In this document: one piece after another, positions 20,130-58,529 of the stretch
Numbering within the stretch: position 1 is the stretch's first letter
Layout: every line of letters begins with the position of its first letter
Source: Candidatus Multivoradales bacterium
GTDB lineage: Bacteria > Acidobacteriota > Thermoanaerobaculia > Multivoradales > JAHEKO01
DNA length: 64,000 nt
Reading direction: 5' to 3'
Assembly (NCBI GenBank): GCA_965248055.1
Contig: CBDFIJ010000004.1
Span: 3,072,001-3,136,000 of the forward strand
Notes under the pieces: generated by a model
The model's input: the letters and a program-made list of their open reading frames with translations, nothing else
The model's database searches: none
What the model was told of the DNA's origin: nothing
Position numbers and translations under genes: made by a program

Positions 20130-20352
20130 GGCTAGAGAACCGGCGAAAGTGGTCGGTTATTCCGCTCCGGTAGCCATCCCGAGGGAATGGTCGAGGGTAT
20201 CCAGCGCGGGAGCCCATAAAGGGCTCCCCTACATACAAGGCACCCCATGCTTCGCGTGGCCGTCTCGCGACAAAGCAGCGGCGATGGGTCTCTGGAGTTG
20301 ACCCGTCTTAGTGGACACTAAGAATAGGATCATTGGATCCAAGGAGGTGTTC

Positions 20353-20649
20353 ATGTCAGTAGTTCGTCGTCGATTTAGCAAAGAGTTCAAACGAGAAGCA
20401 GTACATCAGGCTCTGGAAAGCGATCTGCCGATGTCGTCAGTGGCTCGAGATCTAGACATCCGGCCGAATCTTCTGGGCAGGTGGAAGCAGCAGTATTTGG
20501 AGGACCCTGATCAAGCGTTTCCCGGCGAGGGGCGTTTGCAGCCGGAGCAAGAGGAGGTGCGTCGTCTTCGCCGAGAGCTGGCGATGATGAAAGAGGAGCA
20601 CGCGATCCTAAAAAAAGCGGTGGCGATCTTCTCGGATCGACGGCGATGA
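20353..20649 (+). CDS. IS3 transposase OrfA (HTH)
   Basis: RRRFSKEFKREAV; A7G slippery site 20610-20617; ATGA overlap with OrfB. Confidence 0.92.
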   Translation: MSVVRRRFSKEFKREAVHQALESDLPMSSVARDLDIRPNLLGRWKQQYLEDPDQAFPGEGRLQPEQEEVRRLRRELAMMKEEHAILKKAVAIFSDRRR

Positions 20650-21545
20650 GATTTGATTTCATCCGCCGTCATCGGCGCGAGCATTCTGTGCGCGTCATGT
20701 GTCGTGTTCTGGAGGTATCACCGAGCGGTTATTACGCCTGGGTACGTCGTCCAGAGTGCCGACGTGGCCGGGAAGATCGCCGCCTTTTGACCCAGATTCG
20801 CATGATTCACTCGGAGAGTCGGCGGACGTATGGAAGCCCTAGAATCCATGGTGAGTTGCGAGACCGGGGTTTTTGCCACAGCCGCAAGCGTGTGACTCGC
20901 TTGATGCGCAGTCACGGCATTCGCTCAATACGGGCCAAGCAGTTTCGGGTAACGACGCAGTCGAAACATAAGCATCCGGTGGCTGCGAATGTATTGGATC
21001 GCCGCTTCGAGGTCGAAGATCCCAATCATGTGTGGTTAAGCGACATCACCTACATTCCCACCACTGAAGGCTGGCTGTACTTGGCAGCGATCATGGACCT
21101 TGGGTCCCGGCGTATTGTTGGTTTCTCGACCAGTACTCGTCTGACCCAGGATCTGACTCTACGGGCTCTGGACAGTGCGCTCTATGAGCGCCGCCCAGAT
21201 CCTGGGAGGCTGTTGCACCATTCTGATCGCGGTAGTCAGTACGCAGCGTCTGACTATCGCAAAAAACTCAAAGATGCCCGCATCACGGTGAGCATGAGCC
21301 GCAAGGGCAATTGCTGGGACAACGCACCGATGGAGAGCTTCTTTGCCAGCTTGAAGACCGAGCGGGTGCATCATGTGCGCTACACCAGCCGTCGCCAAGC
21401 TCAACGAGATCTATTCGATTACATCGAGATCTTCTACAACCGTAAACGACGCCACTCAAGCCTCGGAGGCTTGAGTCCTGTCGCCTACGAAGACCGACTC
21501 GCTGCCTCGGCAACGGTCGTCAACCAAACGGCTCTCCCTCAATGA
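20646..21545 (+). CDS. IS3 transposase OrfB (DDE integrase core)
   Basis: WLSDITYI, HHSDRGSQY, CWDNAPMESFF. Confidence 0.95.
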   Translation: MRFDFIRRHRREHSVRVMCRVLEVSPSGYYAWVRRPECRRGREDRRLLTQIRMIHSESRRTYGSPRIHGELRDRGFCHSRKRVTRLMRSHGIRSIRAKQFRVTTQSKHKHPVAANVLDRRFEVEDPNHVWLSDITYIPTTEGWLYLAAIMDLGSRRIVGFSTSTRLTQDLTLRALDSALYERRPDPGRLLHHSDRGSQYAASDYRKKLKDARITVSMSRKGNCWDNAPMESFFASLKTERVHHVRYTSRRQAQRDLFDYIEIFYNRKRRHSSLGGLSPVAYEDRLAASATVVNQTALPQ

Positions 21546-21616
21546 GAGCTAAACTATGTGTCCACCAAAACGGGGCAGCTTCACTCCTTGCGGTATTGGC
21601 CAACGGTGGTTCCAGG

Positions 21617-21831
21617 GCTTCTTCATCGTTTTCTCCTTTCGGTTACACTGTCCCTTCGGCTCCCTGACCTTGGGTAACTCTCGCACCGACCTTGTCAATA
21701 CAGGCTCTACGGCCTCAGATTCTTTCCGGCGTTTGAGAGCTAGGGCAGGGAGCTGATCTACGTACAGGCTCAGGGCCTAAGGGGAGGGACAGCTTCCCTG
21801 CCGAAGAGACTCATCTCCACAAACATACAAG
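21617..21831 (-). ncRNA. Orphan IS110 left end carrying a bridge RNA; recombinase ORF truncated after MKKP
   Basis: Inverted near-copy of 57150-57365; guide CCCTCCCCT (21788-21780) equals its own flank (21838-21830). Confidence 0.8.
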
Positions 21832-21842
21832 GGGAGGGGGGT

Positions 21843-23609
21843 TTACCCCCTCCCGAGCTGTTCCCCGCCGTCAGCCAGATTCCGATGCTGATACAACTCC
21901 CCATCTTCGAATCCCAATTTCCGGTAGTAGTTTCGGGTTCCGACCGCGGAAATGACAGCAAGGTCTCGATAGCCGGCAGCCCGAGCGATTTCGACCGCAC
22001 GTTCGGTGAGCGCAGTACCAAGACCCTGGTGTTGGGTTCTTGACCCCGGCTCAGCCTGCCAGTCCACCACCTGGCCGTAGACGTGGACTTCGCGAATCAT
22101 CGCGCTGTTTTGGATCTCCGGGATGGGCACTGGTTGCTTGGGCAGGCTCAGGCGCAAGAAGCCGGCGATCTGGTCGCTCTCGGTGACGAACTCGAGAAAC
22201 ACTTGGGGCCCGATCGACGAGTCGTACTTGGTGTCGCGCAATTGCAATGCTGAACGTCGCACGCTCTTGCCACGAGTCTCACGAGCCCGGATTTCGACGT
22301 TGATTTTCCCCAGTGCCTCCAGCCTGGCTTCGGCGACCTCTCGCAGATTGGTCACCCGGTTGCCGTCGACGATGTCGCCGCCGGGGATGTCGCGGATGAC
22401 GCGAGTCAAACGGCAGTAGCGGGGTGTGGCTTCCATACAGGCCGCCAAGACCTCGACTAGTTCTTCCTCATCGTAGGGGCGCCAACGACCGTCTTGGTAG
22501 TAGCCCATCAATTCCGCACTCTCAATCAGGCTGCAGGGGTAGATCTTAAGTTCGTCGGGACGGAAGTCGGGATCGTCGAACATGCGCCGGTAATCTTCGA
22601 TGTCGGCTTGCGGACTCGAGCCGTAGAGATTGGCCATCCAGTGCCCGTGGATCTTGAAACCGGCCGCACGCAAACGTTGGACCGCGCTACGCGAGGCGGC
22701 AACGTCATGCCCCCGGTGGTTGGCTTTCAGCACCGCGTCGTTGAGACTTTGAAATCCGATCTGGACTTTGGTGGCTCCCAGGCGGCGCAAACGTGTGATC
22801 TCTGCGTCATCCAGATGATCAGGCCGGGTTTCCAGCACCAACCCGACGCAGCGACTGCCTGCCTCTTCATTGGTTGTTTGGGCAGTAGATAACTGCTGCC
22901 AGGTTGCTGCTCCGGCAAGTTGGTCCATTCCGTTTCGGCGCACCACCTGGTTGTAGTTGTCTTGAGCGATCGTCTCACCACGGACCCGGTCCTCGATCGC
23001 TTCATAGCCGGTCGACGGCAAATCGGGAAGATCCAGGCGGTCGCTGGGGAGAAAGTCGTTCATCGCCTCAAAGCAGCGGAGCACCAACCAAATCTGATAT
23101 TCCTCGGGATAAGACGACCAGGTTCCGCCCAAAACGATCAGCTCGACCTTGTTGACCGAGTGGCCATTGTTGTAAAACGCTTGCAGTCGGGATGCGGTTT
23201 GTCGGTAGGGATCGAAACGATGTTCAGCGGCGCGCTGGGCCCCGGGTTCGTCTGATAGGTAACTCTTGGGCATGCGCACGTCGCTGGGGCAGAAGATGCA
23301 CTTTCCCGGACACGGATAGGGCGGTGTCAAGACCGTCACCGGCGCTACCCCGGAAAGGGTGCGGATCGGTTTCATCCGCACCTTGTCGAGAAACACAGAT
23401 TCGTCCCGTTGCCAGTTGCGCACCTGATTTAGGTGGCGAAAGCCGCGGATGATCTCGGCCTTGGAGTAGAAGCCGCCTTCTTGTTTTGGATGGGCGCGGA
23501 GAATTCTCGCCCACGCCGCATTGTCGAGTCCGGTGGCGGTATCAACCGCCTGGACGATTCCCTCGATCGCCTGTTCGTGCTGCTGAGGATCGAAGGTGTA
23601 GACACTCAC
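21843..23609 (-). CDS. elp3: Elp3/KAT9-type radical SAM + GNAT tRNA U34 carboxymethyltransferase
   Basis: KPIRTLSGVAPVTV, CPGKCIFCP, MPKSYLSDEPG, LETRPD, PDELKIYP, IREVHVYG, QHQGLG; start chosen at GTG 23609 (ORF open to 23705). Confidence 0.88.
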   Translation of the reverse strand: MSVYTFDPQQHEQAIEGIVQAVDTATGLDNAAWARILRAHPKQEGGFYSKAEIIRGFRHLNQVRNWQRDESVFLDKVRMKPIRTLSGVAPVTVLTPPYPCPGKCIFCPSDVRMPKSYLSDEPGAQRAAEHRFDPYRQTASRLQAFYNNGHSVNKVELIVLGGTWSSYPEEYQIWLVLRCFEAMNDFLPSDRLDLPDLPSTGYEAIEDRVRGETIAQDNYNQVVRRNGMDQLAGAATWQQLSTAQTTNEEAGSRCVGLVLETRPDHLDDAEITRLRRLGATKVQIGFQSLNDAVLKANHRGHDVAASRSAVQRLRAAGFKIHGHWMANLYGSSPQADIEDYRRMFDDPDFRPDELKIYPCSLIESAELMGYYQDGRWRPYDEEELVEVLAACMEATPRYCRLTRVIRDIPGGDIVDGNRVTNLREVAEARLEALGKINVEIRARETRGKSVRRSALQLRDTKYDSSIGPQVFLEFVTESDQIAGFLRLSLPKQPVPIPEIQNSAMIREVHVYGQVVDWQAEPGSRTQHQGLGTALTERAVEIARAAGYRDLAVISAVGTRNYYRKLGFEDGELYQHRNLADGGEQLGRG

Positions 23610-23723
23610 AGAGTTGATTATCCCGCAACCCGAATGGCTACTGGGATGACGCACCAGACCCTGGGTTCCCGCCCCCAGCTCCCGATCCCCTTCGCGCCGG
23701 GGCAAGCTTTCCTCTTTCGCCGA

Positions 23724-55309: not shown

Positions 55310-55776
55310 ACGTCATCCCCGTAGGGAGGGGGTTTCGGGGGGTCGGGGATCTTTGTCAATGCCAGAGACGCTCGGTACGGGACTGCAATTGCCACTAGAT
55401 CCCGGCCCCGCGCCCTCGCACCCGCCGGGATGACGAGGGAATGGGTCCTGCCGGGGTGACGGAGCGGATCCCGGCTAGCGTCTCCTCAACCTGCGGGCGG
55501 GGATCAACCCCGCCCCTGCGGAGAGGGCGGTCGCCATCACATTCTTTGTACCCCGTCGCGATTATTGGCCGTAGGGAGCCGGCAATCCCATTTCTTGGTA
55601 GGGAGGGGTTTACCCCCTCCCACGGCTCATTCCGAAATTGTCGCCTTGAAACCTGCCCCCCACATCGTCATCCCCGAAGGTTGGGGGTCTTTGGGGGTCG
55701 GGGATCTTTCAAGCGTAGGGGCATGCGTGCTGCCCTGAGATCCCGGCCCCCCGTCGGCCCACCCGCCGGGATGACG
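55310..55776. repeat. Cluster of GTCATCCC and GTAG palindromic REP-like elements
   Basis: Two GTCATCCCC...GGGGATC / GATCCCGG...CGGGATGAC pairs and GTAGGGAGGGGTTTACCCCCTCC. Confidence 0.75.
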
Positions 55777-55866
55777 AAAGAAAAGACGAGGCGCCTTTTG
55801 TTGGTTTGGAGTTGACCCGTTTTAGTGGACACTAAGAATAGGATCATTGGATCTAAGGAGGTGTTC

Positions 55867-56163
55867 ATGTCAGTAGTTCGTCGTCGATTTAGCAAAGAGT
55901 TCAAACGAGAAGCAGTACATCAGGCTCTGGAAAGCGATCTGCCGATGTCGTCAGTGGCTCGAGATCTAGGCATCCGGCCGAATCTTCTGGGTAGGTGGAA
56001 GCAGCAGTACTTGGATGACCCAGACCAAGCGTTTCCCGGCGAGGGGCGTTTAAAGCCAGAGGAAGAGGAGTTACGTCGTCTTCGCCGCGAGCTGGCGATG
56101 ATGAGAGAGGAACACGCGATCCTAAAAAAAGCGGTGGCGATCTTCTCGGATCGACGACGATGA
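55867..56163 (+). CDS. IS3 transposase OrfA
   Basis: Paralog of 20353-20649. Confidence 0.92.
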   Translation: MSVVRRRFSKEFKREAVHQALESDLPMSSVARDLGIRPNLLGRWKQQYLDDPDQAFPGEGRLKPEEEELRRLRRELAMMREEHAILKKAVAIFSDRRR

Positions 56164-57059
56164 GATTCGATTTCATTCGCCGTCATCGGCGCGAGTATTC
56201 TGTACTCGTCATGTGTCGTGTGCTGGAGGTGTCACGCAGCGGCTATTACGCTTGGGTGCGTCGCCCAGAGTGCCGACGTGGCCGAGAAGATCGCCGACTT
56301 CTGACTCAGATTCGTATGATTCACTCCGAGAGTCGGCGGACGTATGGGAGCCCTAGAATCCATGGTGAGTTGCGAGACCAGGGGTTTTGCCACAGCCGCA
56401 AGCGTGTGACTCGGTTAATGCACAATCACGGCATTCGCTCAATACGGGCCAAGCAGTTTCGGGTAACGACGCAGTCGAAACATAAGCATCCGGTGGCTGC
56501 GAATGTATTGGACCGCCGTTTCGAGGTCGAAGATCCCAATCATGTGTGGTTGAGCGATATAACCTACATTCCCACCACTGAAGGCTGGCTGTACTTGGCA
56601 GCGATCATGGACCTTGGGTCCCGGCGTATTGTTGGTTTTTCGACCAGTACTCGTCTGACTCAGGATTTGACTCTACGGGCCCTGGAGAGCGCTCTCTATG
56701 AGCGCCGGCCAGATCCTGGCAGGCTCCTGCACCACTCTGATCGCGGTAGTCAGTACGCAGCGTCTGACTATCGCAAGAAACTCGAAGATGCCCGCATCAC
56801 GGTGAGTATGAGCCGTAAAGGCAACTGCTGGGACAACGCACCGATGGAGAGCTTCTTTGCCAGCTTGAAGACCGAGCGGGTGCATCATGTGCGCTATACC
56901 AGTCGTCGACAAGCTCAAAGAGACCTCTTCGATTACATCGAAATTTTCTACAACCGCAAGCGACGCCACTCAAGCCTCGGAGGCTTGAGTCCTGTCGCCT
57001 ATGAAGACCGACTCGCTGCTTTGGCAACGGTCGCTAACCAAACCGCTCTCGCTCAATGA
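56160..57059 (+). CDS. IS3 transposase OrfB
   Basis: Paralog of 20646-21545, DDE motifs intact. Confidence 0.95.
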   Translation: MRFDFIRRHRREYSVLVMCRVLEVSRSGYYAWVRRPECRRGREDRRLLTQIRMIHSESRRTYGSPRIHGELRDQGFCHSRKRVTRLMHNHGIRSIRAKQFRVTTQSKHKHPVAANVLDRRFEVEDPNHVWLSDITYIPTTEGWLYLAAIMDLGSRRIVGFSTSTRLTQDLTLRALESALYERRPDPGRLLHHSDRGSQYAASDYRKKLEDARITVSMSRKGNCWDNAPMESFFASLKTERVHHVRYTSRRQAQRDLFDYIEIFYNRKRRHSSLGGLSPVAYEDRLAALATVANQTALAQ

Positions 57060-57166
57060 GAGCTAAACTATGTGTCCACCAAAACGGGGCAGCTTCAGTT
57101 GTAGCTTTGGCCGGTCTCCGCAACCTTCGGGCGGGGATCAACCCCGCCCCTTGTATGTTTGTGGAG

Positions 57167-57345
57167 ATGAGTCTCTTCGGCAGGGAAGCTGTCCCGCCCC
57201 TTAGGCCCTGAGCCTGTACGTAGATCAGCTCCCTGCCTTACCTCTCGAACGCCGGAGAGAATCTGAGGCCCTAGAGCCTGCATTCACAAGGTCGGTGCGA
57301 GAGTTACCCAAGGTCAGGGAGCCGAAGGGACAGTGTAACCGAAAG
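57167..57345 (+). ncRNA. IS110 bridge RNA (boundaries approximate)
   Basis: Target guides CCCGCCCCT (57193) and CGTAG (57219); donor guides AGAGAATCT (57256) and ACAAG (57286), each pair inside a closing stem. Confidence 0.85.
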
Positions 57346-57354
57346 GAGAAAACG

Positions 57355-58359
57355 ATGAAGAAGCCACTGCCCTGCGGAATCGAAGTCAGCGCCAAGTCCT
57401 TTGAGCTATGTCTCAAGCTTGCCTCAGGCAAGCTTGAGAGGCGACAGTTTGCAAATACTGCGTCCGGTATTCGCCAGCTGGCCGCTTGGCTCAAGAGACA
57501 AGAACGGCCCGTTCAAGCGGTCCTGGAAGCCACCGGAGTGTACGGTCAAGATCTGACCTTCACTCTGTGCAAAACCACAGGTGTTGAGGTCATGGTTGCC
57601 AACCCTCGTGCTGCTCGCCGTTTCGCTGAAGCTTTGATGAAAAGAGCCAAGACCGACCGCATCGACGCGGAAATGCTTTGTCAGTTTGCTCAACGCATGC
57701 CGTTTGAAGAGTTCCAGCCACCTGGTGACCAAGAACTGGCCCTAAGGTCCATCACCCGCCGCATCCTGGCATTGACTCAACAACGAACAGAGGAGAAGAA
57801 CCGACTCCATGCTGCATCTGCCTCTAGAACGATTCCGGCAGCTGTAAGCCAAAGTCTTAATCGCCAAATCGTTGTACTGAATCGGGAAATCGATCGGCTC
57901 GACAAACAGGCACTCAAACTCATCAACAACCAGACCAAACTCAAGATACGTTATCAATTCCTGCTGAGTATCCCGGGAATCGGACCCAAGAGCGCATCTC
58001 GGATTCTTGCCGAACTCGCAGTGCTGCCCAAAGAGCTCACCCCTAGGCAATGGGTCGCTCATGCCGGACTCGATCCGAAACCGGTCGAATCCGGCTCCTC
58101 TGTCAACAAACCACGAAGAATCTCCAAGACCGGAAACTCACGCCTTAGACAGGCTCTCTACATGCCCGCTCTCTCGGCTGCGAGGGCCAATCCTCACTGT
58201 CGAAGTTTCTATCTCAGTCTCCAACAACGAGGACTAAAACCCATGCAAGCGATTGTCGCCATCATGAGAAAACTACTCCACGCCATTCATGGAATCTGGA
58301 CACACGCCACTGACTTTGACGCTACAAAGCTCTTCCCAAATGTCGTTATTAACCATTGA
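57355..58359 (+). CDS. IS110 DEDD-type recombinase
   Basis: GIEVS, LEATGVY, AKTDRIDA, SIPGIG, ESGSS, SKTGNSRLRQALY; AAGGAG RBS. Confidence 0.93.
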   Translation: MKKPLPCGIEVSAKSFELCLKLASGKLERRQFANTASGIRQLAAWLKRQERPVQAVLEATGVYGQDLTFTLCKTTGVEVMVANPRAARRFAEALMKRAKTDRIDAEMLCQFAQRMPFEEFQPPGDQELALRSITRRILALTQQRTEEKNRLHAASASRTIPAAVSQSLNRQIVVLNREIDRLDKQALKLINNQTKLKIRYQFLLSIPGIGPKSASRILAELAVLPKELTPRQWVAHAGLDPKPVESGSSVNKPRRISKTGNSRLRQALYMPALSAARANPHCRSFYLSLQQRGLKPMQAIVAIMRKLLHAIHGIWTHATDFDATKLFPNVVINH

Positions 58360-58529
58360 CCCCGAACAGAGAATCTACGGAGCGAGCGGTCGCTGTTACA
58401 TTTCTTGTAGGGGAGGGGTTTAGCCCCTCCCGGTTCTCTTGCAAGGTGGCACGAGTGTTCGGGCCGACGAATCACCAGCCAACAACACCAAGGACAAGCC
58501 GTTACAATTCGTAGCAGAGGGAAAGAACT

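Follow-up and report, generated by a model that had tools for sequence, protein, structure and literature searches.

An orphan left end of an IS110-family element retaining a bridge-RNA module and a matched guide/target pair

The window, the whole 64,000-nucleotide stretch of DNA that was analyzed and whose positions are used below, carries a truncated IS110-family left end on the − strand (copy B; 21616–21829, 214 nt), delimited by BLAST to an intact copy in the same window (copy A) and by reading of the boundaries. Upstream and co-directional lies an Elp3-like radical-SAM/GNAT gene (21843–23705, − strand; Radical_SAM, Radical_SAM_C, and GNAT domains), which terminates 14 nt before the left end with its TAA stop inside the loop of a REP-like hairpin. 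This hairpin, a T-type repeat with arms GGGAGGGGG and CCCCCCTCCC, forms the target of copy B together with the core CT (21830–21854, − strand); its final nine bases (21838–21830) are the left target CCCTCCC-CT. On the other side of copy B, 32 nt of unique intergenic DNA (21584–21615) lead from the deletion junction to an IS3-family element (20293–21583, + strand; orfA 20311–20649, orfB 20646–21545), and the first three bases of that spacer, CTC, are the 3-bp IS3 target duplication.

Copy B begins with TGTATGTTTG at 21829 (− strand) and aligns with the copy A left end from 57152 onward, with 94% identity across 241 nt when the flank is included. Eight differences lie inside the 125-nt bridge-RNA module, and by-eye reading finds none in the remainder of the 214 nt. 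The recombinase-gene remnant (21616–21626, − strand) reads ATG AAG AAG CC; homology stops past ATGAAGAAGCC (M-K-K-P), and the deletion junction lies at 21616/21615. The sequence-only reading had described an inverted IS110-family left end with an altered guide and a recombinase frame that stops matching after MKKP: All of its sequence statements hold at 21616–21829, and the last matching base is 21616. Copies A and C (described below) have the intact recombinase gene and both ends of an autonomous IS110-family element, whereas copy B ends after codon 4 and lacks a right end. These features support the reading of copy B as an orphan left end of an IS110-family element with an intact bridge-RNA module.

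Copy A is an intact element of 1,225 bp (57152–58376, + strand) with a bridge-RNA module (57179–57303, + strand) and a recombinase gene (57355–58359, + strand) whose product matches DEDD_Tnp_IS110 and Transposase_20 (Pfam E = 2.3e-27 and 9.1e-22). It follows a G-type REP-like hairpin with core CT (57129–57151, + strand). An empty paralogue of this target (55495–55517, + strand) has the same hairpin, with CCCCGCCCCT followed by GCGGAG..., and thereby defines the ends of the element, which CT flanks on either side, as TGTATG...AGAGAATCT. Read across the joined ends, copy A contains TTGACC (58356–58361), a 17-nt spacer, and TATGTT (57154–57159), a candidate junction promoter. A third copy, C, lies beyond the window at approximately C4:3279519–3280729 on the − strand and is identical to copy A over all 1,225 bp, so that the genome holds two identical intact recombinase genes. 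The copy C hairpin is T-type on both arms. A solo right-end fragment, 100% identical to copy A, is positioned after a G-type hairpin.

The copy B module (21678–21802, − strand) is complete under the covariance model, with target-binding loop, linker, and donor-binding loop (model R1: 158.9 bits, E = 1.7e-35). The bridge-RNA model was first built from copies A and B alone and then run on 80 related loci, which came from a profile search with a 24-protein recombinase alignment. It gave 55 matches at E ≤ 1, and in the large majority of the 80 loci the match lay upstream of the recombinase gene, on the + strand and within ~200 nt. Genome contigs scanned with a single recombinase protein yielded no relative, and a DNA search across 41 related genomes (G000 included) returned just tiny matches outside G000. 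In an alignment of 31 sequences, which was fitted to the model and is thus biased toward the structure, 89.9% of cells in the two-loop structure were paired and 28 of 31 pairs had changed on both sides; none of 500 shuffles scored as high, and slid controls were 34–45% paired. In the family structure, each of the two internal loops lies between a basal stem and a distal hairpin, the helices being supported by co-variation, and in copy A the module sits in the left end, on the same strand, 52 nt upstream of the recombinase ATG. In the donor loop, the base that follows CAAG is the handshake base: Of 28 cases, 26 show it paired with target position −3 (G-C 19, A-T 4, C-G 3; the others are one G-T and one mismatch); copies A and B both place G opposite C. 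Rfam 15 at its gathering score gave no match anywhere in the window, intact copy A included, a result that is not specific to copy B. Single-sequence folds of the two left ends produced a long-range fold that does not resemble the two-loop arrangement and has weak z-scores (−0.91 and −2.18); it was dropped for the structure supported by co-variation.

All six stems are intact in the copy B module, and seven of its eight differences from copy A fall at unpaired positions; this avoidance of paired positions is not significant (P ~ 0.28 by arithmetic), and the pattern gives no sign of decay either. Seven of the eight differences cluster in a 48-nt stretch in the donor-binding region, and no compensatory pairs were found among these seven by eye. 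Over 166 of the 214 nt, the guide base is the sole difference from the active copies. Such near-identity implies that copy B is young, gene-converted, or conserved, and we counted it against the view of copy B as a fossil.

The left target guide of copy B, CCCTCCCCT (21780–21788, − strand), carries T at 21785, where copies A and C carry G. The nine bases preceding the left end (21830–21838) are likewise CCCTCCCCT, which confirms the claim that the same G-to-T change occurs in guide and flank. Copy A has CCCGCCCCT both as target guide (57193–57201) and as flank (57143–57151). Guide and flank agree at 9/9 positions in copy A, 9/9 in copy B, and 8/9 in copy C. Tabulating guide against flank over the genome copies, as the sequence-only reading had proposed, thus upholds the rule in two of three: Copies A and B follow it, and copy C, whose G guide sits at a T-type site, breaks it. 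Across relatives (30 unique own pairs and 856 cross-pairs), guides matched their own flank at a mean of 6.87/9 positions vs. 4.53/9 for the flanks of other loci, and scores of at least 8 were reached by 7 of 30 own pairs vs. 0.23% of cross-pairs. This co-variation places the base changed in copy B at a true guide position. The same kind of one-base guide/flank switch at −6 occurs within a single Latescibacterota genome (L042 vs. L031, L032, L033, and L038). These comparisons show that copy B preserves a matched guide/target pair, one base (−6) away from copy A, which pairs a G guide with a G-type site.

The targets belong to a family of short GC-rich hairpins repeated at many intergenic places, as expected of REP-like palindromes. 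Hairpin matches with complementary arms, counted on both strands, comprise 27 T-type, 9 G-type, and 2 A-type sequences, which by our own count correspond to about 14 T-type, 6 G-type, and 1 A-type loci. For the T guide, six empty sites carry the exact 9-mer with AC after it; for the G guide there is one. The earlier proposal of natural reprogramming toward a different REP variant is not required for reaching T-type repeats, since copy C occupies such a site with a G guide. Relatives without a second guide (L025 and L027, compared with L026) also contain natural insertions with a mismatch at −6/−5.

In copy A the donor guide AGAGAATCT (57256–57264) equals the right end of the element (58368–58376), and the same is found in copy C; in relatives, donor-guide matches of 7–9 nt end ~1,060–1,150 nt downstream. 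The left donor guide of copy B is AAAGAATCT (21717–21725, − strand), with A at 21724 where copies A and C and 33 of 33 relatives have G; positions −8 to −6 thus read GAG in all 33 relatives and AAG in copy B. From this guide the sequence-only reading had predicted a right end AAAGAAT-CT, for which a genome search with context returned 0 matches. Because the −8 base is G in every relative, the change in copy B resembles decay more than co-variation, and it suggests, most simply, a mutation acquired after truncation.

The surroundings constrain how copy B came to its present form. In a same-genus genome, an orthologue of the Elp3-like gene (73% identity) is followed by a PhzF-like gene, as here, and this synteny indicates that no host gene was lost at copy B; a comparison of the Elp3–PhzF spacer with that genome in search of the empty site of copy B gave just 7–9-nt chance matches, the spacer being too diverged. 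The IS3-family element was considered as the cause of the truncation and rejected, as it has its own 3-bp duplication, CTC; judged from the sequence, its insertion is a later event, independent of the truncation. Two empty T-type sites, C4:3063800 and 3064094, carry the motif GAAGAAGCC(AC) 3 nt past the insertion point on its right side, and variants of it occur at C4:670000 (GAAGAAG) and in the right flank of copy C (GAAGAAGC).

We consider it likely that copy B arose by insertion under the direction of its T guide, lost ~1 kb by deletion between short repeats, and survives as a fossil that receives no more than weak transcription, by read-through. An element of the IS621 type, guided by its bridge RNA, inserted right after CCCTCCC-CT in the T-type hairpin that immediately follows the Elp3-like gene. 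About 1 kb would then have been lost, comprising the recombinase gene from codon 4 on and the right end, along with a few bases of flank. The loss likely occurred by deletion between direct repeats GAAGAAGCC, one at the recombinase start and the other in the motif that follows the insertion point by 3 nt on the right, a model that leans on other T-type sites rather than on the pre-insertion flank of copy B itself. The IS3-family element would have arrived afterward, 32 nt away. Lacking both recombinase and right end, copy B cannot circularize or rebuild a junction promoter. No sigma-70-like promoter for its RNA was found in the sequence, and a terminator-like hairpin, a 9-pair stem followed by the T-rich CTTGTATGTT, precedes the left end. 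Copy B is thus most likely a molecular fossil, with weak read-through as the most transcription it would receive.

A functional role for copy B would look different: Read-through of the Elp3-like gene would yield its RNA, which the recombinase of copies A and C would use in trans, broadening their range to the commoner T-type repeats, and copy C would be a product of this route. The orientation of the Elp3-like gene, stated earlier to point into copy B, is as claimed, and the co-directional module has retained both loops and all of its stems. The two identical recombinase genes of copies A and C could supply the protein, the copy C site matches the copy B guide at 9/9 positions against 8/9 for its own guide, and the 6-to-1 excess of empty exact sites favors the T guide. 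Bridge RNA is reported to work in trans (PMC11208160), and for IS621 read-through by itself gives enough bridge RNA for excision (PMC13626964). Against this stand the missing promoter-like site, the terminator-like hairpin between the Elp3-like gene and the left end, and the loss of the right end, without which a junction promoter is impossible. The copy B donor guide, moreover, mismatches the right end of copies A and C at −8, the base invariant in 33 of 33 relatives, so the trans route would cost one mismatch as well; copy C requires no helper, given the mismatched insertions in relatives without a second guide. We therefore regard such a role as unlikely. Were copy B active, it would show that guide RNAs of decayed insertion sequences can go on working and redirect intact relatives to new targets.

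Copy C could also be explained by mutation in place, with strict matching throughout: The T guide would be ancestral, a T-to-G change would have arisen inside copy C after insertion at its T-type site, and the new guide would have led a daughter, copy A, into a G-type site, which makes copy C the locus of reprogramming in this account. The identity of copies A and C over 1,225 bp fits a parent and daughter in which nothing else has changed, the T-type arms on both sides of the copy C hairpin indicate that the flank is unmutated, the right-end fragment identical to copy A follows a G-type hairpin, and mismatch tolerance is reported to be low in IS621 (PMC11208160). The same identity leaves zero informative differences, however, so that a move from A to C is indistinguishable from one from C to A; mismatched natural insertions do occur in relatives; and copy B, with seven further differences from copies A and C, is not their direct ancestor. 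On balance this history seems improbable to us. The remaining explanation, that guide and flank changed from G to T by chance or that the bases specific to copy B are assembly errors, is very improbable. It draws on there being a single such pair in the genome, with copy C breaking the rule, and on Logan contigs over 21655–21778, which are of the A/C type only (in two of four runs of one sample, with no B-type contig). By our own arithmetic, however, the chance that one of eight substitutions in 214 nt restores flank identity is ~0.01, and the family-wide co-variation puts the base within the guide. Both junctions of copy B are covered by Logan contigs with 0 differences, including a 92-nt contig across 21554–21645 in four runs of one sample, and the eight differences are substitutions rather than homopolymer errors. 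The A/C-type contig departs from copy B at 21785; where a repeat has alternative paths, contig graphs discard the rarer one, and we attribute the missing B-type contig to bubble-popping during contig construction rather than to true absence. Insertion under the T guide followed by deletion thus remains the reading that we prefer.

The locus provides an in-genome illustration of one bridge-RNA guide base tracking one base of a REP variant, and copy C makes it relevant to how strictly guide and target are matched in nature. It also brings a diverged subfamily, whose boundaries, guides, and handshake base are clear, to the IS110-group systems of bridge RNA and recombinase described for IS621 (Durrant et al. 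2024, PMC11208160; Hiraizumi et al. 2024, PMC11208158, and 2026, PMC13626964). The likenesses are several. The left end encodes the RNA ahead of a DEDD/IS110 recombinase gene, and the RNA has two internal loops with distal hairpins; the left guides are sense-identical to the left target and, in copies A and C and in relatives, to the left donor, CT core included, and the short right guides are complementary to CT-AC in the target and CT-TGT in the donor. The handshake base co-varies with the target, a REP-like hairpin is targeted, and only in the circle would the −35 box of the right end meet the −10 box of the left end to form a promoter. There are also differences from IS621: The recombinase is probably a distant relative, with ~66% identity to its nearest database proteins, the RNA has no Rfam match at gathering score, and copy B is a stump without recombinase or right end.

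ISPpu9 and ISPpu10 of Pseudomonas putida likewise belong to the IS110 family and occupy a fixed point in REP hairpins, with the target stem-loop also 5' of the guide match and with partial derivatives that persist (orphan ssr9 copies and a truncated tnp fragment) (PMC12288879; 10.64898/2026.03.19.712850). In the same sources, the orphan pieces of ISPpu9 are the downstream Ssr9 module, whereas copy B is a left end that keeps its bridge RNA, and ISPpu9 has a strong native promoter, whereas none was seen for copy B. Compact IS110 elements that consist of a recombinase without a 5' UTR also imply separate loci and possible action in trans; copy B is their reciprocal, an RNA without a recombinase, and truncated remnants were filtered out of that study, so that stumps such as copy B fall outside it (10.64898/2026.08.14.744561). 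Within the portions of the bridge-RNA literature searched, trans action is raised as a possibility and not demonstrated for a solo left end, and a bridge RNA retained in such an end is not described. Copy B is a natural example of a known mechanism and does not change that mechanism. [quoted passage not shown]

Comparison of empty and filled sites defines the IS110-family element. An unoccupied paralogue of the copy A target (window 55495–55517) reads ...CCCCGCCCCT then directly GCGGAG..., and the filled site reads ...CCCCGCCCCT, then the element (TGTATG ... AGAGAATCT), then ACGGAG.... Copy A (57152–58376, + strand) is thus a 1225-bp element starting TGTATG and ending AGAGAATCT, with CT on both sides, as a CT core predicts. 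Its 334-aa product matches DEDD_Tnp_IS110 (E 2.3e-27) and Transposase_20 (E 9.1e-22).

We surveyed the whole 3.4-Mb genome (four contigs, C1–C4) for pieces of this element. Besides copy A, it holds copy C (locus L004; about C4:3279519–3280729, near 3.28 Mb and outside the window, − strand), identical to copy A at 1225/1225 positions and with a right flank beginning ACGAAGCGAAGAAGC; stump B, a left-end (LE) remnant running from 21829 down to 21616 (− strand) by alignment to the copy A LE; a 72-nt solo right-end (RE) fragment (L007; C4:433804–433875, outside the window), 100% identical to copy A; and a 16-nt LE scrap (TGTATGTTTGTGGAGA; L009, C4:2623788–2623827, outside the window). That scrap and a 12-nt one (GTTTGTGGAGAT; C4:1044478 onward, outside the window) each follow a T-type hairpin of the REP-like target, a sign that elements have inserted and decayed there repeatedly. 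The solo RE fragment abuts a G-type hairpin directly (…CCCCGCCC-A-CT…), and its internal break, GCC/ACTG, has the same four-plus-four bases as the stump B break (AAGCC/ACTG in the intact gene). Five further PF01548 genes (C4:804945, 1145015, 1379158, 2104384, and 3287963, outside the window) are part of other IS110-family elements; four, equal in score, probably represent a single element present four times. Contigs C1–C3 (14.8, 16.7, and 28.4 kb) have 39–43% G+C vs. 57% for the 3.35-Mb contig and may be plasmids, phage, or contamination.

Reading copies A and B by hand gives a two-loop RNA. The target-binding loop has a basal stem GGCAGGGA(A)GCTG / CAGCTCCCTGCC enclosing a 5′ guide UCCCGCCCCUU, a distal hairpin AGGC-N5-GCCU, and a 3′ strand GUACGUAGAU; the donor-binding loop has a basal stem CUCUCG-AA-CGCCG / CGGUG-CGAGAG enclosing a 5′ guide GAGAGAAUCUG, a hairpin AGGC-N6-GCCU, and a 3′ strand GCAUUCACAAGGU. 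A covariance model built from A and B only was run on 80 loci of other phyla whose recombinases are 31–52% identical. It matched 55 times at E ≤ 1, and every strong match is on the + strand and precedes the recombinase gene by about 200 nt at most. In a 31-sequence alignment, which was fitted to the model and is thereby biased in favor of the structure, 89.9% of cells pair and both sides are changed in 28 of 31 pairs; 0/500 shuffles scored as high, and sliding the partner by 1–3 columns lowered pairing to 34–45%. The target-loop 3′ strand GUAGAU, read from the sequences, complements AT-CT-AC—the right-end tail, core, and right target. We assign the module to the IS621-type bridge RNAs. Genome-wide, the model scored significantly only at A, B, and C, plus one weak match (E 0.89), and had no match upstream of the five other IS110-family recombinase genes.

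Guide and flank agree at copy A (CCCGCCCCT in both, 9/9) and at stump B (CCCTCCCCT in both, 9/9), whereas copy C carries guide CCCGCCCCT at flank CCCTCCCCT (8/9, mismatched at position −6). The copy C hairpin is T-type on both arms, which rules out a mutation of its flank after insertion. The co-variation proposed in the sequence-only reading thus holds in two of three copies when tabulated over the genome; the natural reprogramming drawn from it is still reasonable, though weakened by a G guide sitting in a T-type site.

The target itself is a small REP-like family: hairpin-pattern matches on both strands comprise 27 T-type, nine G-type, and two A-type, corresponding by our own count to about 14, six, and one hairpin loci. 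Exact 9-mers at hairpins number nine for the T-type (two occupied, by B and C; AC next in 6/7 empty sites) and six for the G-type (one occupied, by A; AC next in 1/5), so fully matching sites are more numerous for the T guide than for the G guide. One T-type hairpin (58411–58431) lies 35 nt beyond the right end of copy A; its − strand offers the stump B guide an exact target that is empty (CCCTCCCCT then ACAAG).

The guides of this family's module behave like those of IS621. In relatives, the target-loop 5′ strand matches the bases directly before the TGTAT/TGTAC start (motif present in 32/41 loci; the nine without it were left out), with a mean match of 6.87/9 to the own flank vs. 4.53/9 to flanks of other loci; scores of at least 8 occur in 7/30 own pairs and 0.23% of 856 cross-pairs. 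The relatives' donor guide finds a 7–9-nt match ending about 1060–1150 nt downstream, at ...GAGTATCT or ...GAGAATCT, and the donor-loop base after CAAG pairs with target position −3 in 26/28 cases, through three pair types; this base is the handshake guide known from IS621 (PMC13626964). The −6 guide base changed in stump B falls inside the stretch co-varying among relatives, and the co-change of guide and flank there is real and more than chance. Paralogues on a Latescibacterota chromosome (OZ242010.1) provide a second natural case in which guide and target differ together by one base at position −6: L042 has CGCCTCT in guide and flank, and L031, L032, L033, and L038 have CCCCTCT in both. Mismatched natural insertions also occur among relatives: L025 and L027 share the L026 guide, and their flanks match at only 5–6/9.

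In stump B, all six helices of the module are intact. Its differences from copy A number eight, seven of them at unpaired or linker positions (not significant by our own arithmetic) and seven confined to a 48-nt stretch of the donor-binding region (significant by the same arithmetic; 21696–21743 in B, 57238–57285 in A); the remaining 166 nt of the LE differ at the target-guide base alone. This clustering may reflect a mosaic structure or rapid evolution of the donor loop. The stump B donor guide has A at −8, in place of the G shared by 33/33 relatives and the A/C right end. The right end predicted from this guide in the sequence-only reading has no counterpart in the whole genome, and decay is the more likely source of the change.

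Element homology in stump B stops after ATGAAGAAGCC at 21616; 32 nt of unique DNA separate this point from an IS3-family element (20293–21583, + strand), whose right end faces it. This IS3 has its own perfect 3-bp duplication, CTC, marking an independent insertion that did not cut the IS110 element and ruling it out as the cause of truncation. A relative (55807–57097, + strand; duplication GTT; 93% identical) lies beside copy A, and a third copy at C4:142098–143383; the three share about 93% mutual identity and TG...CA ends. Each of the two window copies is on the + strand and has an IS110 piece no more than 55 nt to its right.

Stump B probably arose instead by deletion between short direct repeats, the start of the recombinase gene and a right-flank motif, the latter inferred from other T-type sites. 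At C4:3063800 and 3064094, the insertion point is followed, three bases to its right, by GAAGAAGCC(AC); C4:670000 shows GAAGAAG and the copy C right flank GAAGAAGC. The recombinase gene begins with the same 9–10 bases. Such a deletion would yield exactly ...ATGAAGAAGCC fused to the flank; the stump B spacer does not align with that of a same-genus relative, so the repeats are seen at other sites only. That relative has an Elp3-like gene (73% identity), 417 nt, and a PhzF-like gene (72%); the order is alike, so no host gene was lost. Within 21843–21900, the Elp3-like ORF enters the repeat hairpin, with its TAA stop in the hairpin loop, and its C terminus is about a dozen residues longer than in the same-genus orthologue, so the gene end was rewritten by the repeat.

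The sequence-only reading also raised use of the stump B RNA in trans with intact recombinases, which we consider improbable from the sequence features at hand. The IS621 bridge RNA acts in trans, with read-through supplying enough for excision (PMC11208160; PMC13626964); this genome has two intact recombinase genes, and the copy C site fits the stump B target guide better than copy C's own. Against this, a scan found no sigma-70-like promoter in the LE of copy A or stump B. Copy A has a TTGACC box (58356–58361) 15 nt before its end and TATGTT at 57154–57159; once the ends are joined, TTGACC would precede TATGTT by 17 nt, which is how junction promoters are described in IS110 elements (PMC11208160; PMC12288879). 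Lacking a right end, stump B can never form this promoter. Read-through from the Elp3-like gene would meet a GC-rich hairpin of nine pairs and then CTTGTATGTT, terminator-like by scan, before the stump B LE. In IS621, excision no longer occurred once a terminator had been placed ahead of the LE (PMC13626964). The altered donor guide, with no right end to match, also counts against a trans role.

The discovery of bridge RNAs rested on guide/target co-variation over thousands of IS110 elements (5,511 RNA–target pairs; PMC11208160), and IS621 and ISPpu9/ISPpu10 are known to target REPs (PMC11208160; PMC12288879; 10.64898/2026.03.19.712850). Insertion at off-target or partly matching sites is being investigated (10.64898/2026.08.31.748434). 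Recombinase-only elements have been read as suggesting trans-acting bridge RNA, in a study whose filter removed truncated remnants (10.64898/2026.08.14.744561). In the literature searched, we met no account of a solo left end that retains its bridge RNA; the stump B locus is an IS110-group bridge RNA kept in a fossil stump.
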